Origin: a virus
Reading direction: 5' to 3' (one strand)
UHGV virus genome: UHGV-0149901
Length of the DNA stretch: 64,000 nt
Positions 3,405-45,330 of the stretch are shown one piece after another (position 1 is the first letter of the stretch; each line of letters begins with the position of its first letter). A program made the position numbers and the translations under genes. The notes beneath the pieces are model-generated. The model had not been told where the DNA came from. It ran no database searches and saw only the letters and a list, made by a program, of their open reading frames with translations.

Positions 3405-4723
3405 AAAAGTTGATCGCACTTAAGCATAAGCTGGACGAAATGAAAGCTATGGGAACCAATGCAAAAAAAGAGGCATTGGCCAACATGGATGACTTTGAAC
3501 AAAGCATGGTTTCATTGATGCTCAACCCTTTCATCCGTTTTGGGGTAAAGAAATACAAAGTGGCAGAGCCGCTTAGTGAGTCCGTCCCAAGTGACGAAAA
3601 AGCCATTGATGTACTGAATAAGCTGGCCTCTCGCGAGCTGACGGGGAACGCAGCAATAGCTGCTGTTGAGTCTATCGTGGCGTCAATGTGCGCCGATGGG
3701 CAGGACGTGTTCCGTCGTTTCCTCTTAAAAGACCCGAAAGCGGGTGTTGGGATTAGCCTATGCAACAAGGTTTTTGAAAATCCCATTCCGAAATTCGAGG
3801 TGCAGCTGGCGTCACCGTATAAAGAAAAAGGCGACAAATACCCCTTCAAGCCAAATCCTAAAGCAAAATGGCCGATGATTGGCAGCCTTAAGCTCGATGG
3901 TTTGCGAGTAATTTGCGAGGTTATTGTTGACGAGGAAGAGGTGAACTTCCTTTCTCGTACTGGTAATCCAATCACGTCTCTCGATCACCTAAAGCCAGCC
4001 ATGCTCGAATTAGGCAAACTTTCAGGCCACAAACACATCTTCTTCGATGGTGAAGGAACAGCCGGTTCATTTAACCAGTCCGTATCTGCATTGCGCAAAA
4101 AGAACGTGCAGGCAATTGGCGCTATTTATCATGTTTTCGACTTCTTCCTACCGGAATGGCGGGCACAGGCTAAATCCAAAGAGTATGCAAAGACAGGTAT
4201 GAAACTGAAAGAGCGCCTGGCTATGCTCGTGGCGTTGTTCAAAAACGATCGCAGTGAAGGCTACGCACAAGACATTCACCTGCATCCGTTCTACATCATC
4301 CATAGCCACGAAGACTTCATCGAACGCTTCATGAAACGCCTGGACGATAACGAAGAAGGGGAGATGGGCAAAGATCCGAACTCTGTTTACGAGTTTAAAC
4401 GTACCCGCAGCTGGTGGAAGTTAAAAGACGAAGATTCAGAAGATGGTGAAATTATCGATTTTGAGCCGGGCGACCCGGACTCTGGTTTTGCCAACACGCT
4501 TGGAAAAATTGTTATTCGTCTTGAAAACGGAGTCATCGTTCGTGCGAGCGGCATTAAGCATAAATATCTGGACGAGATCTGGAACAACAAAGAGAAGTAC
4601 CGTGGTCGTATTGTCGAGGTTCATTGTCACGAGAAAACACCTGATGGCAGCTTACGCCACCCACGACTGAAATGGCCGCGTTGCTTACGCGATACCGAAG
4701 AGCGAATCGGTGATAAAGAATGA
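3401..4723 (+). CDS. ATP-dependent DNA ligase
   Basis: Adenylation motif I KxDGxR present as KLDGLR; 440 aa; GGAGG RBS. Confidence 0.8.
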   Translation: MKKLIALKHKLDEMKAMGTNAKKEALANMDDFEQSMVSLMLNPFIRFGVKKYKVAEPLSESVPSDEKAIDVLNKLASRELTGNAAIAAVESIVASMCADGQDVFRRFLLKDPKAGVGISLCNKVFENPIPKFEVQLASPYKEKGDKYPFKPNPKAKWPMIGSLKLDGLRVICEVIVDEEEVNFLSRTGNPITSLDHLKPAMLELGKLSGHKHIFFDGEGTAGSFNQSVSALRKKNVQAIGAIYHVFDFFLPEWRAQAKSKEYAKTGMKLKERLAMLVALFKNDRSEGYAQDIHLHPFYIIHSHEDFIERFMKRLDDNEEGEMGKDPNSVYEFKRTRSWWKLKDEDSEDGEIIDFEPGDPDSGFANTLGKIVIRLENGVIVRASGIKHKYLDEIWNNKEKYRGRIVEVHCHEKTPDGSLRHPRLKWPRCLRDTEERIGDKE

Positions 4724-25122: not shown

Positions 25123-25548
25123 ATGACAGCTATTAAGAAACTCTACGATGCCGCAAACGTGGCTCTGGATGTTATTGATGATGAAGCAGCAAAAGGCTTT
25201 CCTGAACCTGATTGGGCGCATCAGCTACGAAACGCTATCGCCGAAATGAATCCACCAGATCCGACCACCGACGAGACAGACTGGCAGCGATTTATCCGTA
25301 TGTACGCTCAGGAAATAGGTCCAACGCCAACGGCAGAGCAAGCAATGCTGCTGAAATACTTCAAAGAGGCGGGAGAGGATTTACCAATTGATGACTCAGC
25401 ATATTGGTTCCACTGCGCATGGCGTAAGTATGACGTGATATTCACACAAGGCATGGGGAGCAAAGATATGGTTGTGTGGCATCTACTCCATATAGACACA
25501 GCCGTTGACAGAGTTATTGAACAGTTTTTCCCTAAACAAGAAGATTGA
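25123..25548 (+). CDS. Hypothetical protein
   Basis: 141 aa ORF. Confidence 0.5.
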   Translation: MTAIKKLYDAANVALDVIDDEAAKGFPEPDWAHQLRNAIAEMNPPDPTTDETDWQRFIRMYAQEIGPTPTAEQAMLLKYFKEAGEDLPIDDSAYWFHCAWRKYDVIFTQGMGSKDMVVWHLLHIDTAVDRVIEQFFPKQED

Positions 25549-25603
25549 TCGCCTATTCATAACTAACAAAATAAGTAAACACTAACCACAAAAGGAAAAA
25601 CAC

Positions 25604-25879
25604 ATGAGAGTTTTAGTTCGAATCGTTACCAGCACTGTCTATGACGTGTTTCCGCTTTTTATGGTCAAAGCCGATGGCCTTAACGACGAAGAAACTGACG
25701 CGCTGATCCAGCGTATTCTCGTTGAATATACAGGTCATGACGCTGATTCAGTGATGGTTGATGATGATGGTGTTTGTTGGCATAACGGCAACTGTTGGTA
25801 CGTAGAAGAGACTCAACAAATCAGTGATGAAGATGCCGCACATCTTGAGCGTATTTTAAGCATCAGCACTTTTGAGTGA
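25604..25879 (+). CDS. Hypothetical protein
   Basis: 91 aa ORF preceded by conserved AGGAAAAACACATG context. Confidence 0.5.
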   Translation: MRVLVRIVTSTVYDVFPLFMVKADGLNDEETDALIQRILVEYTGHDADSVMVDDDGVCWHNGNCWYVEETQQISDEDAAHLERILSISTFE

Positions 25880-25918
25880 GTTTACAGTAAAATTTATATA
25901 AGTTAGTATCTACCTATC

Positions 25919-26098
25919 ATGAAGATTTTTATTGAATACTTGTTACTCATCGTTTCAATAGCTTTTGTCATCGACTGCATTTTCACCGGTGTCATTCGTA
26001 AAGTCTTTTCCCCGGTGAACGACGTAGTCATAAACGCTTTGGCTATCGTGCTCGTATTTAATTCAGCATTTGATGTAATCAAAGAGGTGGCAGCATGA
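25919..26098 (+). CDS. Small membrane protein (59 aa, not in ORF track)
   Basis: Hydrophobic ORF MKIFIEYLLLIVSIAFVIDC...; ATGA overlap with next gene. Confidence 0.4.
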   Translation: MKIFIEYLLLIVSIAFVIDCIFTGVIRKVFSPVNDVVINALAIVLVFNSAFDVIKEVAA

Positions 26099-26430
26099 AG
26101 GCCATCCCATTCGCGCTGTTGTTCCTTTCTTCGATCGTTGTGGCCGACACCACTGTTTATCAGTGTGAAATGTCTGTAGCCGACGTTAAGAATGGCGCTC
26201 TTACCGACGTCATAAAAGCACCATATGGAGCGATGGTCGTAGACAGCGGCGACCAGTTCTATGTTGTGCGTGACGATCGAGTGTTGTCATCCCCATATCT
26301 CACAAATCGTAATGGCAAATTAACCGGCGTCGGAGAAGACCACTTCGTATACAACAAATACAAGGGCTTCTATGGTGTTCACGCTTCTCAGCAAAGCTAC
26401 CTTTTCGATGACTGCAAGGAGGTTGGATAA
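26095..26430 (+). CDS. Secreted hypothetical protein
   Basis: Signal peptide; 111 aa. Confidence 0.5.
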   Translation: MKAIPFALLFLSSIVVADTTVYQCEMSVADVKNGALTDVIKAPYGAMVVDSGDQFYVVRDDRVLSSPYLTNRNGKLTGVGEDHFVYNKYKGFYGVHASQQSYLFDDCKEVG

Positions 26431-26642
26431 TGGCATTAACACTGGCAGGTCTGGAAATCGAGAAAACAAGCGGCTACTGGCGTGCTAAGGGTTTCAAGCA
26501 GCCTGGCATTCTTGAGCGTCTGGAACGTGAAGATGGGTATATCGTCCACCAGCGGCGTGAATGGCGTATGTACGATCCAGAAACAGGAAAACTGACTACA
26601 AAAGCCGGAACACTTTGGGGTCTGTTAAAGAAAATACACTAA
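26430..26642 (+). CDS. Hypothetical small protein
   Basis: 70 aa, AGGAGG RBS. Confidence 0.45.
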   Translation: MALTLAGLEIEKTSGYWRAKGFKQPGILERLEREDGYIVHQRREWRMYDPETGKLTTKAGTLWGLLKKIH

Positions 26643-26689
26643 ATGCAAACTGACTGCGGCACGTTCCGCAGTCATATTTCATAGTCGTC

Positions 26690-27221
26690 ACCGCTGACAG
26701 CATACACAATCAACTACCGCTGATAGCATATCGAGAGTTTATCTCACCGCTCACAGCATACTTTACTCGATTTTTTACCGCTGACAGCATACTTAAGACA
26801 TTGCATGAATAATGTGTACCGGTATGGGTATAACCAGAACAAAATTACCGCTGGCAGCATACGAAGGTCTGACATATACCATTAATTACCGCTGATAGCA
26901 TATCCAAACAAAAATTCCTCAATAAAACACCGCTGACAGCATACGTTCTATCAGGGAGCAGCAGGCAATAAATGCTTTTCACTACAAGCAATCAGCGCAA
27001 CGGCAATAGAATGTTAGTGAGCGCAAACCTATATGGAATGCACTCTTCGAGGTTAGTAACCACTGGGGAGGTATGCCAGAGCATTGAGTGGTGATAGATG
27101 ATTTACCGCTCACAGCATACGTTTATCTCACTATACCGCTGGTAGCATATCTTTAACCGTTCACAGCATACTTTTCAGAAAAATAGCCGCTGATAGCATA
27201 CATTTCACCGCTGACAGCATA
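26690..27221 (+). repeat. Iteron array (12 copies of ACCGCTGACAGCATAC-type 15-16-mer), incA-like
   Basis: Copies at 26690, 26716, 26746, 26777, 26847, 26888, 26929, 27105, 27135, 27156, 27186, 27207; same orientation, irregular spacing; abuts repA 3' end. Confidence 0.8.
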
Positions 27222-28316
27222 TCAAAGCAGTTTGAGACTATTGGAAAGGATCTCAATCATCTTGATATTTTCAGGCGTCAAATTCTGCGAAAGTTCGGTT
27301 ATCTTGTTGATAATGTTCTGTTTGGCATCAATTTCCCCAGCTTTCTCATCTGGTTTTTTGGGTTCGATGTCTTCAGGTTTTGGCGGTGCGACTTTGAGTT
27401 TTGGATTGCGGCTGTGAATCTGGATATAGATCGACCGCCCTCGCTTAATCTCGCTGTATTCGAGATAACCCAAATCTTGGAGAGCTTTTAAGCCGTTACG
27501 TATAGTCTGATTCTGCGAGCTGACATTCCTGCTACTCAAATTGAGTCGCGCACGCAATCGAGCAAGCGATACCGGCGCAGGCTTGGTTGGAAGACTTTCG
27601 ATGAAGGTGTACAGAGCCTGTGCTGTTTCTTTGCGTGGTAGCTTATTGATAACCTTTAACTGCAAAAGAACCTTATGGTCAAAGCGATATAGTTCGGCCA
27701 GCTTCGGTTCTGCATAGAACACCACCGTATCTTTCTGCTCGTTGTAGTCCACGCTATTGATGAGGTGCACCATCAGAAGCGAGATCTTGTTAGAGCCGTC
27801 TACATTCTTTTCTTCATACGTTCTCTGGAAAGACAGAGTTGTACGCATGATCTTCAAAAGACTGTTTGTAAGCCGGTCGCGGAGTGTTTTGCGGATCTGT
27901 GACGATGGATAGCCACAAAACTTCGCAAATTTCGTGATGCTTAACTCGACACGACCGTTAGGTTCGCCATATTCTGCCAGCGAACGCACAACGCCCACCC
28001 ACGTTTTGAAATCATGATCCATGTCGAGACGAGGACCGGTTATCTTGATATCGGAATAGCCTTCAGAACGGGCTACTTCGAGCTGAACAAGCTCCTTTGA
28101 AGCATCGATCTCATTTGGCTTGTTACGCTTGCTGTATTTTGTCCCCTTGAGCGTGGGCACGAACAACCCCAGCCGCATCAACGCAATTGGTTGGACTGTA
28201 TTGTTGCTATTAGGGACAAGTTCCCCTGTGTACAATTCAAGGGAACCTTCTTCAAAGTTGTCGAGATTATCTTCTACTTCTTTGTTATTTTTACCTTTTT
28301 TATTTTTTGTGGACAT
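27222..28316 (-). CDS. repA: Iteron-binding replication initiator RepA-like protein (start trimmed to MSTKNKK)
   Basis: Flanked both sides by iterons; basic N-terminus; longer track ORF overlaps upstream iterons so internal start chosen. Confidence 0.65.
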   Translation of the reverse strand: MSTKNKKGKNNKEVEDNLDNFEEGSLELYTGELVPNSNNTVQPIALMRLGLFVPTLKGTKYSKRNKPNEIDASKELVQLEVARSEGYSDIKITGPRLDMDHDFKTWVGVVRSLAEYGEPNGRVELSITKFAKFCGYPSSQIRKTLRDRLTNSLLKIMRTTLSFQRTYEEKNVDGSNKISLLMVHLINSVDYNEQKDTVVFYAEPKLAELYRFDHKVLLQLKVINKLPRKETAQALYTFIESLPTKPAPVSLARLRARLNLSSRNVSSQNQTIRNGLKALQDLGYLEYSEIKRGRSIYIQIHSRNPKLKVAPPKPEDIEPKKPDEKAGEIDAKQNIINKITELSQNLTPENIKMIEILSNSLKLL

Positions 28317-28336
28317 GTGGACACCTTTGTCATTCA

Positions 28337-28438
28337 ACCGCTGACAGCATACTTGATTTGCCGCTGGCAGCATACCAAAAACAGTTGGCAGCATACGGCG
28401 AACCGTTGACAGACTATCAATTACCGCTGGTAGCATAC
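28337..28438 (+). repeat. Iteron array (about 5 copies) upstream of repA, origin-proximal
   Basis: ACCGCTGACAGCATAC, GCCGCTGGCAGCATAC, partial and degenerate copies, ACCGCTGGTAGCATAC. Confidence 0.75.
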
Positions 28439-28485
28439 ATGAACATGGCTTCAGACCAGTCGTGGCGCGGCTTACAGCGATCGGG

Positions 28486-28552
28486 GATCTTATTTGATCT
28501 ATACAAGGATCTATCTATGGATCTCTTTATTAGGATCTATCCTGTGGATATG
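28486..28552. promoter_or_regulatory. Origin-like unwinding element: five GATC sites, oriC-13-mer-like repeats, DnaA-box-like TGTGGATAT
   Basis: GATCTTATTTGAT ... GATCTCTTTATTAG resemble E. coli oriC 13-mers; 9-mer at 28544-28552. Confidence 0.6.
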
Positions 28553-28637
28553 TGAATAATTAAAACAGGCATTTACTACCTTCGGCGCACCTGGTGGGTT
28601 ATCGTTGCCTCGGCTAACAATCACAGAAAAATGACAT

Positions 28638-29282
28638 ATGGATCTAAAACGCACGCGCTGGGTTCGTCGTCTTGAAGACGGCTCCTACACTATCGAATCA
28701 AATTCCAACCTGAATAAGCAGAAGCTGCTTTGTGACATCTGCGGTATAGCGGCGAAGTGCCCGATCTACGAAACCAGAATTAAACTTGATAAGGCTGGTG
28801 TGAACTTTCATTTAAACAGTTGCATCAGGTACGTTCCATTGCTCGCATTTCGTAAACCGATCATCGGATTGGATGCCCCCTACTTCAACACACTTCGTTC
28901 AGGTGTGACGTGGCGAGATCGTTTATCACCAGACAAGCTGATTTGCCTTGTATCCGCAGACACAGGGAAAATCATCCGTTTTGGGAAAGTAGACAAGGTT
29001 TACTCAGGTCCAGTAGACGAAATGTTGCGAAAACACAGCCGGTTTAACCATCTCTGCATGGGCGGAGAGAAGATCGAGAAGGTTGACGAAGTGATCCGCA
29101 AATCCTACGGACACTTCCTGAACGACGACAGCCTTCTCACAGCCATCTACATTCGCCATGTCGATCGGGAGTTCGATACGGAGTATCACAGTGCTGAAGA
29201 GTTGAATCTTGTCGACCCTCGCCCAAAAGCTGGGGTAATCGACATCAGCGTTGCGCGTCAGAAGCCCTCTGAGACGTTTTAA
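28638..29282 (+). CDS. Hypothetical protein
   Basis: 214 aa ORF. Confidence 0.5.
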   Translation: MDLKRTRWVRRLEDGSYTIESNSNLNKQKLLCDICGIAAKCPIYETRIKLDKAGVNFHLNSCIRYVPLLAFRKPIIGLDAPYFNTLRSGVTWRDRLSPDKLICLVSADTGKIIRFGKVDKVYSGPVDEMLRKHSRFNHLCMGGEKIEKVDEVIRKSYGHFLNDDSLLTAIYIRHVDREFDTEYHSAEELNLVDPRPKAGVIDISVARQKPSETF

Positions 29283-29357
29283 ACGTAAACTCATGGTTTT
29301 ACCGGGACATAAAATATGGTGTCTTAGAAAGACACTGAGAGCTTTAGGGATTAATAC

Positions 29358-29852
29358 ATGAGTGAATTTTATTCAAGGGCAGCGACTGCGGCAGACATGC
29401 CATTTATCATGGGTGAGTTCGAAGACGGCGCACGCAAGGGTCACTTCTACGAAGAGATCCTCACATCAAAGGGTGGTAAAACCTTTGAGAAGCAGACCAG
29501 GCAGGCAATCAAGACGAACGAGCAGGGTCAATATTCCGGGCATTATATCTACATCCTGCTGCGCCGTTCTGATGACAAAAAAGCAGGGCTAATCTGGTTC
29601 TGTGCCGCACTCGATCCAACCGGTGCACCACGACTTGAACTCCGTGCCGTCAGTATCGTCAAAGAACTACGCGGGAAAGGCTATGGGTCAATGCTGGTGT
29701 CAGACATGATCGATTCAAACCCGAGCCAGCCGATGATGGCGAAGTGCTACGTCAAATCCTCGCAAATGGCCGACATGTTAAAACGCAGAGGTTTTCACCT
29801 TTTCGACACGTCCCCCAAAGGCACGCAGATGCTGTTTCGCGATCCAAAGTAA
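29358..29852 (+). CDS. GNAT-family N-acetyltransferase (putative)
   Basis: Acetyl-CoA binding motif A-like VKELRGKGYGSMLV. Confidence 0.55.
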   Translation: MSEFYSRAATAADMPFIMGEFEDGARKGHFYEEILTSKGGKTFEKQTRQAIKTNEQGQYSGHYIYILLRRSDDKKAGLIWFCAALDPTGAPRLELRAVSIVKELRGKGYGSMLVSDMIDSNPSQPMMAKCYVKSSQMADMLKRRGFHLFDTSPKGTQMLFRDPK

Positions 29853-29874
29853 AAAGCACCCCATATGAGGTGCT
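29850..29874 (-). terminator. Rho-independent terminator for reverse-strand lipoprotein gene
   Basis: Hairpin AGCACC-CCATATGA-GGTGCT with T-tract on minus strand. Confidence 0.6.
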
Positions 29875-29883
29875 TCTGAAGAA

Positions 29884-30375
29884 TTAATCGCAAGTTGTTT
29901 TGCCAGTGCCGTCTGGGTATACGATGGATTCGCACGACTTGCCGTCCAAGAAACTGTAGCTGCGAATAGTGCCGTCCGGATCGCGTTCTGTGTAGGACTC
30001 TAGCTTATTCGGATCAGCGTTCTTACGGCGCACTTCTTTCAGCTCATATTGGGCCTTGTACATCTCCTTGTAGGCTTCTTCTATGCGCTTCATCTTGATG
30101 TCTTTAGCTTCTTGACTGCCTTGATATGCGGCCATATCGAGGTCACAGTTAAACTCAATAGCCGGATATCTCGGGCCGTATTTAGAAGCAAAAAGATGGC
30201 CATTGGATGTGTAGAATGCGTGTCCGCCACACAACTTATCAGCCCTGTCTTGGGCTATAGCTTTACTAGTAGTTGAGTAGATGTAGATAAAGCTACCTGA
30301 TTTTCGATCCTCTGGTGGCTTGGGCGCACACCCAACCAGTGCAAGAGCCATTACCCCCATCATTACGCGTTTCAC
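29884..30375 (-). CDS. Lipoprotein, reverse-strand (candidate superinfection-exclusion gene)
   Basis: Lipobox LVGC; 163 aa; opposite orientation to flanking operons. Confidence 0.6.
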   Translation of the reverse strand: MKRVMMGVMALALVGCAPKPPEDRKSGSFIYIYSTTSKAIAQDRADKLCGGHAFYTSNGHLFASKYGPRYPAIEFNCDLDMAAYQGSQEAKDIKMKRIEEAYKEMYKAQYELKEVRRKNADPNKLESYTERDPDGTIRSYSFLDGKSCESIVYPDGTGKTTCD

Positions 30376-30603: not shown

Positions 30604-31689
30604 ATGACATTGCCATACGGGGTGATATCAGATCCCCATTATCATCGTTGGGATGCTTTTGCGACAACAAACGCTGACGGGCTGAACTCTCGACTGGAGA
30701 TCCAATTGGACGCCACGAAAGAAGCTGCCAAAGCCATGAAAGCTGCGGGCTGCAAACACATGCTGGTGGCTGGTGATACTTTCCATGTTCGTGGTGCTAT
30801 ATCGCCTTCCGTCCTGCATTTCGTGACCGAAACTTACGAGTGGATCATCAAAGAGTTGGGCCTCAAAGTGGTTATGCTGGCCGGCAACCACGACCTCGAA
30901 ACCAACGATTCCGTATACAGCGCCAATGCAGCGGCCTCTCTGCGCTCAATCGGTGTGGAAATCGTCTGCGGCAAACGTCCTCACTCCATCAAAATTGGCG
31001 ACGTTACCGTCCACCTGATTAGCTGGCGTAATAACCACGCAGAGCTTATCAGCGACCTTAAAACACTGCGTTACGGGCTGGATGGCGACAACCACGATGT
31101 CGTTGTGCATACCTCGATCAACAAAGCGATCCCCACCATGCCTGATGTCGGTATCGATGCACAGGAACTGAAAGATATCGGCTTCCGTTTGTTGCTGTCC
31201 GGACACTACCACAACCACAAAGAAGTGCTGCCTGGAGTGGTTAGCATCGGTGCACTGACCCATCAAAATTGGGGAGATGTTGGATCTCTGGCTGGTTACA
31301 TGATCGTAAACCCGGACGGCAGTTTCAGTCACTACGAAACCAGTGCGCCTAAATTCATTAACCTGGAAGATTATGTTGCCGATGACCAAATTCGCGGCAA
31401 CTACGTGCGTTTCCGCGCCGTAATTGAGAACGATGAAGAAGGCATTAAGTACCAGAACATCCTCAAAACAATGGGCGCAAAAGGTGTCGTGTGCAACTTC
31501 ATCCGTAAGTCATCAATGATGGAAGGGACAGCAAGCACAACTGAAACCAGCAAAATCGATAGCCTGGGAGAGTCGGTATCTGCTTATTGCAAGATTGTCC
31601 ACGATACTGACGGCGGATTTGATCTGAGCAAGTTGGATATTTTGTGTCAGGAAATCCTCACCGAAGCGGAGAGTTCGGAGGCTGTGTGA
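30604..31689 (+). CDS. sbcD: SbcD/Mre11-like metallophosphoesterase nuclease
   Basis: Calcineurin-like motifs DPHYH, GDTFH, GNHD, GHYH. Confidence 0.75.
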   Translation: MTLPYGVISDPHYHRWDAFATTNADGLNSRLEIQLDATKEAAKAMKAAGCKHMLVAGDTFHVRGAISPSVLHFVTETYEWIIKELGLKVVMLAGNHDLETNDSVYSANAAASLRSIGVEIVCGKRPHSIKIGDVTVHLISWRNNHAELISDLKTLRYGLDGDNHDVVVHTSINKAIPTMPDVGIDAQELKDIGFRLLLSGHYHNHKEVLPGVVSIGALTHQNWGDVGSLAGYMIVNPDGSFSHYETSAPKFINLEDYVADDQIRGNYVRFRAVIENDEEGIKYQNILKTMGAKGVVCNFIRKSSMMEGTASTTETSKIDSLGESVSAYCKIVHDTDGGFDLSKLDILCQEILTEAESSEAV

Positions 31690-31730
31690 GGCAAAGTCGT
31701 TATGGGAGCTTTCGAGACTTTGCCATCACG

Positions 31731-31922
31731 ATGAAAAGACTTGAACGAGGCCAGACGGTGATGTTTCACAAGCCCTACCCGCCACAAGGAAATCCCGTAG
31801 CGTTTTATCTTGGAAGGTTAACAAGAAAAGGCGTATTGAGGCGCAGATCCTTCCCGGCGCATACGGAGTTCAGATTGAAAGAAGGCCAAAAGCTAACACA
31901 CGGTATCAGAGGTGTTATATGA
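31731..31922 (+). CDS. Hypothetical small protein
   Basis: 63 aa from internal ATG; ATGA overlap with sbcC-like start. Confidence 0.3.
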   Translation: MKRLERGQTVMFHKPYPPQGNPVAFYLGRLTRKGVLRRRSFPAHTEFRLKEGQKLTHGIRGVI

Positions 31923-33835
31923 AGTTTTTAAAGCTCCAGGTTGAGAATTTTATGGCTATCGCCAGCGCGGAGGTCGAGTTAGATCAGCGTGGTTTAGTGC
32001 TCATTCAGGGTGTTAATAGTGATGATAGTTCCGCATCAAGTAATGGCTCTGGAAAGTCAACGCTAATGAATAGCCTGATGTGGTGTCTTTATGGCGAAAC
32101 AGCTCATGGTGTGAAGGGTGACGATGTGTTGTCTACCGACCATGAAAAGAACTGTCGTGTTGCAGTAACCATCGAGGATGAAGGCAAGAGATATGCGATC
32201 ATTCGTCACCGTAAACACAAAGAGTTCAAAAATCGGCTTATCGTTCGTGGTGAAGACGGCGATATGACGAAAGGCAAAGATGCGCTGACGCAAGAGTTCG
32301 TCGAGCGTCTGATCGGTGCATCTAAAGAGGTTTTCATGGCTTCTATCTATGCGAGCCAAGAAGCTATGCCAGATCTACCTGGAATGTCCGACAAAAACCT
32401 CAAAACCATCGTAGAAGAAGCCGCTGGCGTTGACAGACTGACACGCGCCTACGCTATTGCTCGTGAACGAGCTAACGCAGCTGCCGCACGTATGGACGTG
32501 GTTAAAACCAAATTGGAGTCGACAATCTCGACCATTGAGGCAACACAGTCAGAAATTGAGTCAGCGAAAGCCTCCTCTGAATCATGGGAGCAAGAGCGTT
32601 CTAAACGTTATGACGACGCCCTGGCTGGGCTGGCCAGTGCCGAAGTTGAGTTAACGGAAGTTGAACTTGAGATCCGCACTCTTCCCGAACAGATACGTGA
32701 TACCGAGAAGGCAATCGAAAGTGAGCGCAAAAAATTAGCCTCAAAAGAAGAACATGACGCCAAGTTGCTCAAAGTGCGTGGTGCGATAACTGATATTCGG
32801 GCAAGCATCAAAGCTACAGAAAATAGTCAGGCTGATGCAATGAGCCGCGCGCGCAATTTTAAGACCAAAGCAGAAGAGGTTGGTACTAAAGTAGGATCAC
32901 CATGCCCTACTTGTGGCAAAGCCTACTGCGAAGAAGATCTATCAACGGTGAAGGAGAATTTCATTGAACAAGCACGTCAGGAAATTGGTCAGGCGAAGAC
33001 ACTTGCAGAGGCAATGGCTAAACACAAAACGAATCTTGAGAAGGCGTTAAGCATTGAGTCTGCCCTTGTTAAAACGACACCTGATGTAACGGCTATCATT
33101 ACCCGGATTGAAGAACTTACTAAACAACTCTCATCTTTGCGTCATCGTGAGAAGGAGGTTGTTGCTATTGAGTCTCTTGTTACTCGTGCACGTACTGAGG
33201 TCGATCGTATATCAAAAGAGATTAATCCGTTTATTGCTCTTATCGCCAGACACGAAGATAACCTGGTATCCAGTAAGTCTACCTTCAAATCCTTAAAAGA
33301 TGAGTTGAAGGCTATTCAGGAACAAACGTTGCTATTGGAAAAAGCTCGTCAGGTCTACTCTCCTGCCGGGGTGCGTTCTCATATTTTGACGTCTGTTACG
33401 CCTTTCCTGAATACACGCACAGCCGAGTATCTCAATACGTTGTCTGACGGGAATATTACTGCTGAGTGGTCGACGATGGATGTCACTAAAAAAGGTGAGT
33501 ATCGCGACAAATTCAACATTAGTGTGCAGAAGAAAGGTTCAAGTAAGTCGTTCCAGACCCTCTCTGGTGGTGAGAAGCGGAAGGTTCGCATTGCGTGTTC
33601 TTTGGCATTGCAGGATCTGGTTAGTAACCGGGCGAGTAAAAACATCGATTTGTTTATCGGCGACGAAATTGACGATGCACTCGATACAGCCGGTCTTGAA
33701 CGCCTCATGGGTATTCTGGAGTCCAAAGCTCGCGAACGGGGCACTGTGCTGATTATCTCCCATAAAGAGATGAAGTCATGGTTCCGCGAAACTATTACGC
33801 TGGAAGTTAAAGAGGGGCGCAGCTATGTCGTTTAA
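31919..33835 (+). CDS. sbcC: SbcC/Rad50-like ATPase
   Basis: N-terminal Walker A SNGSGKST, long coiled-coil, C-terminal signature LSGGEKRK and Walker B LFIGDEID. Confidence 0.75.
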   Translation: MKFLKLQVENFMAIASAEVELDQRGLVLIQGVNSDDSSASSNGSGKSTLMNSLMWCLYGETAHGVKGDDVLSTDHEKNCRVAVTIEDEGKRYAIIRHRKHKEFKNRLIVRGEDGDMTKGKDALTQEFVERLIGASKEVFMASIYASQEAMPDLPGMSDKNLKTIVEEAAGVDRLTRAYAIARERANAAAARMDVVKTKLESTISTIEATQSEIESAKASSESWEQERSKRYDDALAGLASAEVELTEVELEIRTLPEQIRDTEKAIESERKKLASKEEHDAKLLKVRGAITDIRASIKATENSQADAMSRARNFKTKAEEVGTKVGSPCPTCGKAYCEEDLSTVKENFIEQARQEIGQAKTLAEAMAKHKTNLEKALSIESALVKTTPDVTAIITRIEELTKQLSSLRHREKEVVAIESLVTRARTEVDRISKEINPFIALIARHEDNLVSSKSTFKSLKDELKAIQEQTLLLEKARQVYSPAGVRSHILTSVTPFLNTRTAEYLNTLSDGNITAEWSTMDVTKKGEYRDKFNISVQKKGSSKSFQTLSGGEKRKVRIACSLALQDLVSNRASKNIDLFIGDEIDDALDTAGLERLMGILESKARERGTVLIISHKEMKSWFRETITLEVKEGRSYVV

Positions 33836-41420: not shown

Positions 41421-41893
41421 AGATGATCGCTGCTGTTGGCCGTAACTATGAGATCGGCATAGCGAATGAACTCCCCTGGCGTTGTTCTACCGATCTGAAG
41501 CTATTTAAGAGACTCACCAAAAACGCCACTGTCGTTATGGGGCGTAAAACGATGGAAAGTCTCAAACGCCCTCTTCCAGAGCGTCATAACCTCGTTTTGA
41601 CGCGCTCTCATGGCTTTGTACCAAATGGATTCTACCCTGCTGGTGTGGATGATGTGTTGCGATTACCAGAGCCTGTGTGGGTGATTGGCGGGGAACAAAT
41701 TTACTCGCTATTCATGCCGCATGTTGAAGAGATTTGGCTCTCCCACATCGGCGTTGATGTGCCAAACGCCGATGCATTCTTCCCGGCAAGCATGATGCGT
41801 AATTTAGGCTTTGTGCCTGTTGAAACAGCTTATACCCAACGAGCCAGCGAGGAAGAGCCTGGCTTTTCGCAGATCGTATACAGAAGGTCGTAA
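41417..41893 (+). CDS. folA: Dihydrofolate reductase
   Basis: 158 aa; MIAAVGRNYEIG ... WVIGGEQIY DHFR signature. Confidence 0.85.
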   Translation: MKMIAAVGRNYEIGIANELPWRCSTDLKLFKRLTKNATVVMGRKTMESLKRPLPERHNLVLTRSHGFVPNGFYPAGVDDVLRLPEPVWVIGGEQIYSLFMPHVEEIWLSHIGVDVPNADAFFPASMMRNLGFVPVETAYTQRASEEEPGFSQIVYRRS

Positions 41894-42537
41894 TGGATTA
41901 CCGGATTGGGATCACTGGTGCTCAGGGCAGTGGGAAAACAACCCTGGCTAAATATATCGACAAACATTACGGAATCCCTTACGTGGATGCTGGTGTCGGA
42001 AGTTTGATGAGCCGCCTCGGTGTTCGAGTAGGTGATTCTATGCCTCTATATGAGCGGCTTCAGATTCAAATGGAAATAGCAAAGCATATAGAGCTACTTA
42101 CGCGTGGTGTTGAAGGCTTTGTTATCGATCGCACACCTGCTGATGTTATGGCCTACACGTTGGATTTGGTCGGCCATACAAATGAAGATCGGTGTATTGA
42201 GTTAGCCCTCGATATCGAAAAGTTTTGCCACAAAACTGCTATTTCAAACTTTAACGCCATTGCTGGCCTACGCCCGGGGGTCGCTCTCTCAGAGCGAGAT
42301 TACTTGCGGTCACAACGAGCATCATTAGACCGTCTGTATGTCGCTCGTATTGATGCGTTGATGTGCGGGGAACTGACAAAAATTCACCTGCATCCGCAAA
42401 GGGGAGATCTGCAAACCTTCGTCGTTTCCAACCGGTATCGCACAGTTGAAGCAAGAGCCAGATCAGTGATGAGAATGCTAGATAACGCTGTAGAAAAGAT
42501 AGAAAACCGGTTCTGTGGCCGAGTGACCGTTCATTAG
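41893..42537 (+). CDS. P-loop NTPase, possible nucleotide kinase
   Basis: Walker A GITGAQGSGKTT at N-terminus; 214 aa. Confidence 0.55.
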   Translation: MDYRIGITGAQGSGKTTLAKYIDKHYGIPYVDAGVGSLMSRLGVRVGDSMPLYERLQIQMEIAKHIELLTRGVEGFVIDRTPADVMAYTLDLVGHTNEDRCIELALDIEKFCHKTAISNFNAIAGLRPGVALSERDYLRSQRASLDRLYVARIDALMCGELTKIHLHPQRGDLQTFVVSNRYRTVEARARSVMRMLDNAVEKIENRFCGRVTVH

Positions 42538-44736: not shown

Positions 44737-45330
44737 ATGATTGCAGCCGAAAAAATCAAACAGCGAAAGCGCGACAACTCTCTTCGTGACCTCTGGAGAA
44801 CACCTGACTGGCTGTTTTCTGCCATTCAACGTTATCTTGGAGTGACATTTGATGTTGACGTTGCCTGCAACAAGGACAATGCAAAGCTGCCTAATTTCAT
44901 AGGCGTTGAGCGTGATGCTTTGAAATCTGAATGGGGACAGCCAGGTACAATTGCCTTCCTCAATCCACCCTACTCCAAAATCTCCCCCTGGATTGATGCG
45001 GCTATACGTGAGCAGGCTCGCGGAGTTACAACAGTGATGCTAATTCCTCAATCCCTAGATACAAAGTGGTATGAGCGTGCAACAGAGTGTGCGAATGAGA
45101 CGATTATTCTGTCTGGTGGCCGCGTAGCGTTTGTCGAGCCTGACGTCAATCTGGGTCAGGTAGAAGTAAACATCAACCCAGGTGGCAGTATGCTCGTTGT
45201 TTTTCGAGGATTCTGTCAGGACGCTGGGCACTCTATAAGCAAGATCCCTTTGGACGTCATGAAAAGTCTGGGAGGGTATGATCCTGCGAATGTGATCAGG
45301 AAAAAAAGACCATCAAAGAAGGCTGCTTAG
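44737..45330 (+). CDS. Orphan DNA N6-adenine methyltransferase (phage Dam-like)
   Basis: Catalytic NPPY motif; no adjacent restriction endonuclease. Confidence 0.65.
   Translation: MIAAEKIKQRKRDNSLRDLWRTPDWLFSAIQRYLGVTFDVDVACNKDNAKLPNFIGVERDALKSEWGQPGTIAFLNPPYSKISPWIDAAIREQARGVTTVMLIPQSLDTKWYERATECANETIILSGGRVAFVEPDVNLGQVEVNINPGGSMLVVFRGFCQDAGHSISKIPLDVMKSLGGYDPANVIRKKRPSKKAA

Follow-up and report, generated by a model that had tools for sequence, protein, structure and literature searches.

The segment at positions 26,690–28,552 of the analysed stretch of viral DNA (64,000 nucleotides; hereafter, the window) is very probably a complete theta replicon of the P1/RepFIB family, controlled by iterons, carried by an SSU5-like Escherichia coli phage-plasmid and belonging to the type IncFIB(H89-PhagePlasmid). 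By analogy with its relatives, the module, which combines an origin, an initiator gene and copy-control repeats, would serve the plasmid maintenance of this element. The replicon is already known, being catalogued as IncFIB(H89-PhagePlasmid), and is therefore real but ordinary; we take the type name from studies in which pECOH89-like plasmids were assigned to it (PMC12838234, PMC13463583). The repA gene of the window is nearly identical to that of the pECOH89 reference, with 363 of 364 amino acids shared and 14 nucleotide differences in 1,095. pECOH89 itself was isolated as plasmid DNA (PMC3999498), and IncFIB is the type of most typed phage-plasmids, chiefly those of the SSU5 supercommunity (PMC7969092).

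The replicon region was found in 195 plasmid records, 121 of which covered at least 80% of it, an occurrence that lends indirect support to plasmid maintenance. These records came almost entirely from Escherichia, were typed as non-mobilizable and included 62–64 kb plasmids of E. albertii; about 120 circular plasmid records shared the region at 95% identity or more. On either side, positions 1–25,000 and 39,001–64,000 of the window were 97–99% identical to E. coli plasmids of about 109–112 kb, pECOH89 included. The backbone was homologous to and syntenic with those of SSU5, pHCM2 and pECOH89, which places the element in the SSU5 supercommunity on genes other than the structural ones, these lying outside the window. 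The gene order flanking repA also matched that of SSU5.

The replicon contains 17 iterons, all in the same orientation, with the consensus GTATGCTGTCAGCGGT on the repA strand and a conserved unit of about 16–19 bp. The core CCGCTGACAGCATA, searched on the plus strand with up to three mismatches, occurred 24 times in the 64 kb compared with 4.4 ± 2.2 times in shuffled sequences, none of 100 shuffles reaching 24, and 17 of the 24 matches fell in the replicon on one strand. Upstream of repA, five direct iterons equivalent to incC (28,335–28,441, minus strand; matches at 28,338–28,437) follow one another at start-to-start distances of 21, 21, 21 and 23 bp, the widest gap being the repA-proximal one. 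Downstream, a repeat search delimited an incA-equivalent copy-control array of 12 direct iterons (26,688–27,225, minus strand; matches at 26,691–27,221, spaced by 26, 30, 31, 70, 41, 41, 176, 30, 21, 30 and 21 bp). It is divided into three clusters, with five iterons at 27,103–27,225, three at 26,845–26,947 and four at 26,688–26,795, and its first iteron adjoins the repA stop codon, where the P1 incA array likewise begins. The sequence-only reading had described twelve same-orientation iterons downstream of repA and about five upstream; with 12 and five matches on one strand at irregular spacings, this description proved exact.

None of the 17 iterons is disrupted, and all of them are conserved in pECOH89, pEC881_2 and an E. 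albertii plasmid. Six other replicons (pECOH89, PhiR41_1, Klebsiella pJN2-26, P1, Cronobacter JK004 and Ro157c2) likewise combine five origin iterons with a downstream array, and SSU5 is organized in this way too, though its origin array is less regular. P1, JK004, Ro157c2 and pJN2-26 share the number and spacing pattern of the origin iterons. The number of control iterons, examined in five of the roughly 195 plasmid records, varies among relatives, with 12 in the window and pECOH89, nine in PhiR41_1, where an 87-bp iteron-to-iteron deletion accounts for the reduction, and eight in pJN2-26. One Klebsiella phage record carries 'attL/attR' features that correspond to iterons. An inverted iteron-like site inside repA (27,961–27,983), complementary to origin iteron 3 at 17 of 19 positions, was considered as an operator and dropped; it probably arose by chance, since neither its position nor its strand is conserved in pJN2-26. 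The 162-bp gap in the downstream array (26,944–27,105) gave RNA-folding z-scores of −0.6 on the plus and −2.45 on the minus strand, too weak for a structured RNA, and an Rfam scan of positions 25,500–29,500 at E values up to 1 returned no match and thus no indication of an antisense-RNA control element. Beyond the array, an inverted repeat at 26,651–26,674 forms a hairpin resembling a bidirectional terminator (9-bp stem, six G-C pairs), which separates the replicon from a convergent upstream gene (26,430–26,642).

The outer edge of the origin is marked by two tandem overlapping DnaA boxes, TTATTCACA and ATATCCACA, read directly on the minus strand at 28,543–28,559. The first is a perfect box at 28,559–28,551, where TTWTNCACA is also matched perfectly (28,551–28,559), and the second agrees at eight of nine positions at 28,551–28,543. 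The consensus DnaA box alone was not enriched in the window (six found, 6.8 expected); despite this, the position corresponds by homology to the DnaA site annotated in P1 oriR (TTATCCACATTATCCACT), with which the boxes align. The DnaA-box-like 9-mer of the sequence-only reading is thus a perfect box with an overlapping partner. That reading ended the replicon at 28,552, a coordinate that cuts the DnaA box, the origin extending to at least 28,559.

Next to the boxes lies an A+T-rich putative unwinding region (28,477–28,542, minus strand), defined by its GATC count and its alignment to P1. Six GATC (Dam) sites fall within 59 bp, at 28,479, 28,486, 28,496, 28,508, 28,520 and 28,534; four occur in AGATCC and one in AGATCA heptamers, both of the form AGATCY, and the sixth, CGATCG, is at the edge of the adjoining spacer. 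With 274 GATC sites in the window, or one per 234 bp, this was the sole 60-bp stretch holding more than three, and six sites were reached in one of 2,000 random placements. The A+T content of the stretch is 68%, against 54% for the window, and column by column the block is homologous to Dam sites 1–5 as annotated in P1. The cluster noticed earlier therefore stands as unique in the window, its count corrected from five to six. The oriC-13-mer-like repeats claimed alongside it did not hold up: GATCTNTTNTTTT with up to two mismatches had one match in the origin (28,520–28,532) and 28 in the window against 33 in shuffles. Judged by their sequence, the origin repeats are instead P1-type heptamers, AGATCC on the repA strand.

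A G+C-rich spacer (GCTGTAAGCCGCGCCACGACTGG...; 28,439–28,478, minus strand; 40% A+T) separates the heptamers from the iterons. Within it, the stretch CCGCGCCACG is conserved with P1 and pJN2-26 and less closely with Ro157c2. The core of DnaA box, AGATCC heptamers and G+C-rich spacer aligns base for base with the annotated P1 oriR, and across six replicons the origin-core alignment had a mean column identity of 69%.

Between the two arrays, homology, Pfam and a structural model identify repA (27,222–28,316, minus strand, stop codon included), preceded by the ribosome-binding site AAAGGTG (28,328–28,322) and predicted to encode an iteron-binding initiator of 364 amino acids. Over residues 32–309 the protein was 43.5% identical to P1 RepA (tblastn, E = 2e-64), and P7 RepA was matched at 43.5% identity as well (E = 1e-68). 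It was 48% identical to SSU5 RepA and 85–88% identical to the RepA proteins of Klebsiella SSU5-like elements, and its single change from pECOH89 RepA is L18I. Among its 477 homologues, PF01051 was present in all among the matches listed; in RepA itself the Rep3_N family (PF01051), the WH1 domain of Rep_3, was matched above the cut-off at 3.9e-9. Proteins including some named 'RepFIB replication protein A' were 50–59% identical, and by sequence comparison the closest relatives outside the SSU5-like group are such RepFIB-type plasmid initiators, not P1 itself. NCBIfam gave no family for RepA or for the neighbouring 214-aa ORF, and Pfam gave no match for the three small ORFs neighbouring repA.

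Because a PDB sequence search with RepA at E values up to 1 returned no match, the fold was examined through an AF2 model (mean pLDDT 73; 80–93 in most of the core). The model comprises WH1 (about residues 65–210), WH2 (about 214–303), a disordered linker (309–328) and a C-terminal helical hairpin (329–363). Foldseek matched it in the PDB to RctB domains 2–3 (1e-7), RepE (4e-5), 1rep (1e-3), pi (8e-3) and TrfA (4e-2), with TM-scores of about 0.5 on target length; the matched structures include RepE54–iteron, pi–iteron and Rep–iteron–DUE complexes. The predicted fold is accordingly the WH1–WH2 arrangement of iteron-binding Rep proteins. We considered the C-terminal extension as a novelty of phage-plasmids and abandoned the idea, as RepFIB-like homologues in general possess a linker and C-terminal helices and it is P1 RepA that is exceptionally short. 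The identity to P1 RepA, the Rep3_N match and the RctB, RepE and pi folds give RepA the homology to iteron-binding initiators that the sequence-only reading had assumed. Its proposal of a P1-like oriR/repA/incA architecture was likewise borne out, since the origin core, RepA and both arrays are each homologous or equivalent to their P1 counterparts.

A putative autoregulated repA promoter may lie inside iterons 2–1 (28,349–28,378, minus strand), placed there by position. The candidate is weak, with a −35 element TTGGTA (28,378–28,373), an 18-nt spacer and a −10 element AAGTAT (28,354–28,349); an alternative candidate is the extended −10 element TGGTATGCT at 28,377–28,369. It occupies the position of the annotated P1 PrepA, in the wider gap of the two repA-proximal iterons. 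A consensus sigma-70 promoter scan gave no match at threshold on the repA (minus) strand, so that autoregulation is suggested by position.

These features bear on where the origin lies and where RepA starts. A study of the near-identical plasmid pEc_K1G_A put oriV in four 21-bp repeats downstream of the gene it calls repB (PMC13463583), PGAP/RefSeq annotates a 404-aa ORF from 28,436 that spans the upstream iterons, and the representative of the protein-collection cluster is likewise the 404/405-aa form. If so, the distal four-iteron cluster would be the origin and the upstream repeats merely coding sequence of a 404-aa RepB, which we regard as very unlikely. The DnaA boxes, GATC heptamers and G+C-rich spacer, all homologues of P1 oriR elements, flank the upstream and not the downstream array, and the distal cluster adjoins only the terminator-like hairpin. 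In the phage PhiR41_1, isolated on MG1655, three of the four distal iterons are gone and the replicon is kept. Compared with pECOH89, the 40-codon extension has six differing sites, five of them nonsynonymous, whereas the 364-codon body has 14, one nonsynonymous (Fisher p = 0.002), a contrast showing that the extension is not evolving as protein. This substitution pattern supports a repA start at 28,316, the point at which the alignment of P1 and SSU5 RepA begins, and some records annotate forms of 364–366 aa. The RefSeq start of the 404-aa RepB is thus probably about 40 codons too far upstream, overlapping the origin iterons, and the 2026 paper (PMC13463583) probably misplaces oriV downstream of the gene.

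It is equally improbable that the RepA/iteron module has become dispensable or is decaying, a relic on an element that replicates in phage fashion from another origin, its arrays serving, for example, as a centromere. The element does encode replication and repair functions of its own (DnaE, a toprim protein, a ligase, a RecA-like protein, SbcCD-like proteins, a nuclease and NrdAB), and its DnaE, ligase, RecA-like and nuclease genes mean that another origin may serve lytic growth. In the relatives SSU5 and Cyrano, another RepA allele (48% identity) occupies this locus, and no P1-type par operon lies next to the incA equivalent, which is bordered by small convergent ORFs; when P1 ParA and the C-terminal part of ParB were compared with the window by tblastn, the best E value was 0.48 and no P1-type ParA emerged. 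In the SSU5-like/pECOH89 family, the par genes are located elsewhere (PMC13463583, PMC3999498). A 214-aa 'AAA family ATPase' ORF at 41,893–42,537 was considered as a ParA candidate and set aside on its sequence, its neighbours and the lack of a P1 ParA match. Against a relic, the differences from pECOH89 in repA (13 synonymous, one nonsynonymous) indicate strong purifying selection, the iterons of both arrays have stayed intact across the relatives named above, and the module is retained even in the reduced E. albertii plasmids. The allele has been exchanged jointly with its matching iterons, as would be expected of a functional replicon cassette, and a centromere would leave the oriR-type core flanked by the repeats unexplained. 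A CRISPR or other tandem repeat array, which many short direct repeats on one strand might bring to mind, can be dismissed, as the sequence-only reading had done from the spacing, given the short unit, spacings irregular between 21 and 176 bp, two blocks divided by the gene for their predicted binding protein, the absence of annotated cas genes near the locus in near-identical plasmids and the lack of an Rfam match.

Having arrived at a P1/RepFIB-type replicon, we compared it with its known counterparts. pECOH89 (NC_023916 / HG530657) and relatives from E. coli, Shigella and E. albertii have 5 + 12 iterons at identical offsets and share the SSU5-like backbone (PMC3999498). The replicon of pECOH89 departs in essentially nothing but a handful of point changes in origin iterons 2, 4 and 5 and the one RepA substitution; about 2.4 kb downstream of its repA there is an ISEcp1-blaCTX-M-15 insertion, which the window lacks at the corresponding place. 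P1 (oriR-incC/repA/incA; AF234172) shares the order of DnaA boxes, GATC heptamers, G+C-rich spacer, five iterons, repA and second array, as well as an iteron spacing of about 21 bp (21, 21, 21 and 22 in P1) and a similar 5′ half of the iteron (GTATGCTG here, GTGTGCTG in P1). The P1 control array has nine iterons, three direct and six inverted, in contrast to the 12 direct ones here; P1 has five GATC sites where we count six, and the DnaA-box offset is 9 nt in P1 and 8 nt here. Unlike P1, the window has no repA-proximal DnaA boxes, the last iteron being only about 22 bp from the ATG, and its 364-aa RepA has the linker and C-terminal hairpin that the 286-aa P1 protein lacks. In P1, parA-parB-parS follows directly downstream of incA, and the carrier is a P1-like myovirus instead of an SSU5-like siphovirus.

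In RepFIB replicons, iterons lie on each side of repA. The RepFIB RepA proteins encoded by large enterobacterial plasmids share with our protein a flexible linker and short helices at the C terminus, neither of which has a counterpart in P1 RepA, whereas the hairpin here is longer and distinct (DAKQNIINKITELSQNLTPENIKMIEILSNSLKLL), the iteron sequence appears to differ, and the replicon resides in a phage genome. The SSU5/pHCM2/pLF82 replicon (IncFIB(pLF82-PhagePlasmid), IncFIB(pHCM2)) occupies the same locus on the same phage backbone, between a 214-aa ORF and a small 'Cre-associated' gene. Its RepA, 48% identical, also has a long C-terminal tail, and its oriR core is homologous. In contrast, its iteron has a different core, CCACTGTAGAGAG, its arrays are more numerous and partly inverted or palindromic, and three GATC sites are left in its heptamer block.

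The working of the replicon, from its replication and copy control to its dependence on Dam and DnaA, can be proposed by analogy with P1. RepA monomers would fill the five origin iterons, as in P1 and RepFIB, and together with DnaA at its boxes would melt the A+T-rich heptamer block so that the helicase can load. Firing would require full Dam methylation of the GATC sites, hemimethylated sites being sequestered after initiation; beside this Dam-dependent scheme, the element encodes a predicted Dam-family methylase of its own (44,737–45,330; Pfam PF05869, 2.5e-38). RepA bound to the origin iterons would also cover the repA promoter, if correctly positioned, and repress its own synthesis. The 12 downstream iterons would titrate RepA and handcuff the origin iterons, keeping the copy number low and acting as the incompatibility determinant. 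With its 12 iterons all in direct orientation and a gap of 176 bp, the control array may differ from that of P1 in looping geometry.

One further idea, which we hold to be rather doubtful, is that the long, uniformly oriented 12-iteron array acts as a copy-number dial prone to recombination, which would lose or gain units when its direct iterons exchange unequally. If this were true, populations would contain reversible copy-up variants, in which cargo such as blaCTX-M-15 would change in dosage. To go by its title, a preprint of 2026 reportedly deals with phage-plasmid-mediated heteroresistance, which suggests that copy-number shifts matter in the SSU5-like/H89 family.

No open question is affected by the replicon finding, and its practical value is for annotation, in that the origin, with DnaA boxes and Dam heptamers of the P1 type, is placed upstream of repA. 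The iteron sequences separate the H89 from the SSU5/pLF82 replicon alleles, and because their iterons differ, the two types are expected to be compatible. The E. coli phage-plasmids that bear this replicon type form a widespread family, and some of them carry blaCTX-M-15.

An initiator gene, repA, lies on the minus strand between two blocks of a single short repeat. The downstream block (26691-27221), which forms the control array, holds 12 copies at start-to-start distances of 26, 30, 31, 70, 41, 41, 176, 30, 21, 30, and 21 bp, and the origin-side block (28338-28437) holds five at 23, 21, 21, and 21 bp. All lie on one strand, in agreement with the 12 downstream and about five upstream same-orientation iterons proposed by the sequence-only reading. 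When the plus-strand core CCGCTGACAGCATA was searched with up to three mismatches, the 64-kb window gave 24 matches, 17 of them within 26690-28552 and all 17 on one strand; shuffled sequences gave 4.4 ± 2.2, and 0 of 100 reached 24. On the repA strand the iteron consensus is GTATGCTGTCAGCGGT(aa), with 15-16 central positions carrying 1.1-2.0 bits each and a palindrome, GCTGTCAGC, inside the core. A 162-bp repeat-free gap (26944-27105) separates the proximal five from the middle three control iterons; it had no Rfam match, and its RNA fold z-score was -2.45 on the minus strand and -0.6 on the plus strand. The counterpart gap in a Klebsiella relative is shorter, at about 87 bp start-to-start. 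Within repA, an inverted iteron-like site (27961-27983) is complementary at 17 of 19 positions to origin iteron 3 and its flank (28386-28404), and is probably a chance occurrence because neither its position nor its strand is conserved in the Klebsiella homologue.

Outward from the five-iteron block, the origin core consists of a spacer of 40% A+T, a more A+T-rich stretch (68%) that carries six GATC sites (28479-28537), and two overlapping DnaA boxes, TTATTCACA and ATATCCACA (28559-28543, read on the minus strand). The GATC cluster is unique in the window: all other 60-bp stretches contain at most three sites, and six sites arose in 1 of 2,000 random placements. The sequence-only reading had counted five GATC sites and ended the origin at 28552; the origin itself stands and reaches about 7 bp farther. 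The DnaA-box-like 9-mer that it noted is borne out by the two boxes, while its oriC-13-mer-like repeats reduced to a single site within two mismatches, without enrichment across the window. Apart from the GATC count, the end coordinate, and the 13-mer label, that description was confirmed as accurate.

We then compared this arrangement with P1 (AF234172), whose GenBank record annotates oriR, incC (five iterons), the repA promoter PrepA, five Dam sites, a DnaA site, and incA (nine iterons). On the repA strand, P1 oriR and the window origin share three blocks: TTATYCAC-(A)TTATCCAC, an AGATCC heptamer run, and GATCG(Y)TG(Y)A(R)GCCGCGCCACG(N)CTGG. Over the core, the six aligned origins (window, P1, Klebsiella pJN2-26, Cronobacter JK004, the P1-like Ro157c2, and SSU5) have a mean column identity of 69%. 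Origin-iteron spacing also matches P1, including a single wider gap on the repA side (22 bp in P1, 23 bp in the window), which in P1 accommodates the -10 of PrepA. The proposed oriR/repA/incA architecture is thus supported by RepA homology, the oriR-like core, origin-iteron spacing, and the downstream control array. This plan is conserved across the compared replicons, and the iteron sequence goes with the RepA allele. Five origin iterons were found in all except SSU5, which carries a different iteron there and more numerous, partly inverted downstream copies. Downstream, the window and pECOH89, the IncFIB(H89-PhagePlasmid) reference, have 12 direct copies at identical offsets, phage PhiR41_1 has nine, three distal copies having been lost by iteron-to-iteron deletion, pJN2-26 has eight (all direct), P1 nine (three direct, six inverted), JK004 eight (three direct, five inverted), and Ro157c2 about six. 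The control array of the H89/Klebsiella branch is longer and uniformly direct relative to P1, with all 12 control iterons direct in the window. The window replicon further differs from that of P1 in having no repA-proximal DnaA boxes, a very short leader, a C-terminal tail on RepA, and no adjoining par operon. The tail is a general RepFIB-like trait and no novelty of this element.

RepA matched Pfam Rep3_N (WH1; 3.9e-9) and, by tblastn, was 43.5% identical over residues 32-309 to the RepA proteins of P1 (E = 2e-64) and P7 (1e-68), 48% identical to that of SSU5, and 85-88% identical to those of Klebsiella SSU5-like phage-plasmids. With E limited to 1e-5, a large protein collection yielded 477 homologues, PF01051 being present in 120 of 120 among those listed; plasmid proteins called RepA or "RepFIB replication protein A" were 50-59% identical. 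The AlphaFold2 model (42 input homologues; mean pLDDT 73, most of the core 80-93) predicts two winged-helix domains (residues about 65-210 and 214-303), a disordered Pro/Glu/Lys-rich linker (309-328), and a C-terminal two-helix hairpin (329-363). RepA is homologous to iteron-binding initiators, since these were its top Foldseek matches in the PDB: RctB domains 2-3 (1e-7) and the RepE dimer-operator complex (4e-5), followed by RepE54-iteron, Rep-iteron-DUE, pi-iteron, and TrfA structures.

The replicon is genuine but ordinary, already known and catalogued, because its RepA is identical to that of pECOH89 (NC_023916/HG530657) at 363 of 364 residues and H89 typing is published. A 2014 study presented pECOH89 as a phage-like plasmid resembling SSU5, its RepA having 48% similarity to the pLF82 protein (PMC3999498), plasmids like it are typed IncFIB(H89-PhagePlasmid) (PMC12838234, PMC13463583), and IncFIB is the type of most typed phage-plasmids, mainly in the SSU5 supercommunity (PMC7969092). 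The 2.1-kb replicon region matched 195 plasmid records, with at least 80% of it covered in 121, nearly all non-mobilizable. Identity was about 99% to many E. coli plasmids, mostly of about 100-115 kb, and 98.4% to PhiR41_1; the remaining window is 97-99% identical to those plasmids, including pECOH89. Near-identical plasmids are annotated here with dnaE, ligase, RecA-like, SbcCD-like, nrdAB, thyA, Dam-family methylase, and rnhA genes. Plasmids of 62-64 kb from wild-bird E. albertii (p2014C-4015-1, NZ_CP034165, and related) carry the replicon (99.5% identical) close to an IS911-family transposase gene, and may have arisen from the 110-kb phage-plasmid by reduction and loss of phage functions.

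Several existing annotations conflict with these results. RefSeq/PGAP begins a 404-aa "RepB" at ATG 28436, within origin iteron 5. Comparison of the window with pECOH89 shows six differences (five nonsynonymous, one synonymous) in the additional 40 codons (28317-28436) against 14 (one nonsynonymous, 13 synonymous) in the 364-codon body (Fisher p = 0.002). Because of this contrast, and because the P1 and SSU5 RepA alignment begins at the short start, the likely protein is the 364-aa form, probably starting at ATG 28316 behind AAAGGTG and ending at stop 27222. For the near-identical pEc_K1G_A, a 2026 paper assigned oriV to four repeats downstream of repB, reported eight downstream repeats, and called the plasmid unrelated to P1 or P7 (PMC13463583). 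The latter is valid for the whole element, but the replicon is homologous to that of P1, and contrary to that oriV placement the origin hallmarks lie upstream of the initiator gene. In Klebsiella phage pJN2-26 (MZ779062), 20-bp attR and attL features (1378-1397 and 2648-2667) flank repA; both fall on RepA iterons, in the origin and control arrays, and the labels are therefore probably mis-annotations. Phage Cyrano was reported without repB-oriV (PMC13463583); tblastn detected an SSU5-type RepA (OV696614, 60804-61625; 47.9% identity) beside a conserved ASCH gene, which suggests that family members have exchanged replicon cassettes rather than lost them.

Immediately outside the origin, a 214-aa ORF (28638-29282, plus strand) is conserved in position in SSU5 (SSU5_070), pJN2-26, and Cyrano, with an ASCH domain annotation there. 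It had no Pfam or NCBIfam match, and the locus is kept even with a different RepA allele. Between it and a metallophosphoesterase gene lie a 164-aa ORF (plus) and a 163-aa putative lipoprotein ORF (minus) at 29358-30375. The E. albertii plasmid and pEC881_2 have neither ORF annotated at the corresponding place, so close relatives seem to differ here by an indel of about 1 kb; in SSU5 the position of the 164-aa ORF is occupied by a GNAT acetyltransferase gene. About 2 kb from the origin, paired genes (30604-33835, plus) encode an SbcD-like metallophosphoesterase (PF00149) and an SbcC/Rad50-like ATPase (AAA_23, SMC_N).

By the P1/RepFIB model and the features annotated in the P1 record, RepA monomers would bind the five origin iterons, DnaA would occupy the tandem boxes, and the A+T-rich heptamer block would melt. 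Dam methylation would be needed, with hemimethylated GATC sites sequestered after firing. The element, whose origin has six clustered GATC sites, encodes a 197-aa Dam-family N6-adenine methyltransferase (44737-45330, plus; PF05869, 2.5e-38), and P1 likewise has its own Dam-type methylase. Iteron-bound RepA would repress the repA promoter; we infer this autoregulation by analogy, because the PrepA-equivalent position offers a weak putative promoter (TTGGTA-18-AAGTAT, or an extended -10, TGGTATGCT) and a promoter scan found none on the minus strand. The 12 downstream iterons would titrate RepA and handcuff the origin, giving low copy number and incompatibility. In PhiR41_1 (PV340561, about 4092-4162, against window 26691-26791), the deletion spans 87 bp and fuses two iterons, and may represent a natural copy-number variant. 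Copy number may be tuned by changes in how many iterons are present, a possibility that is the sole mildly novel idea to emerge from this replicon.
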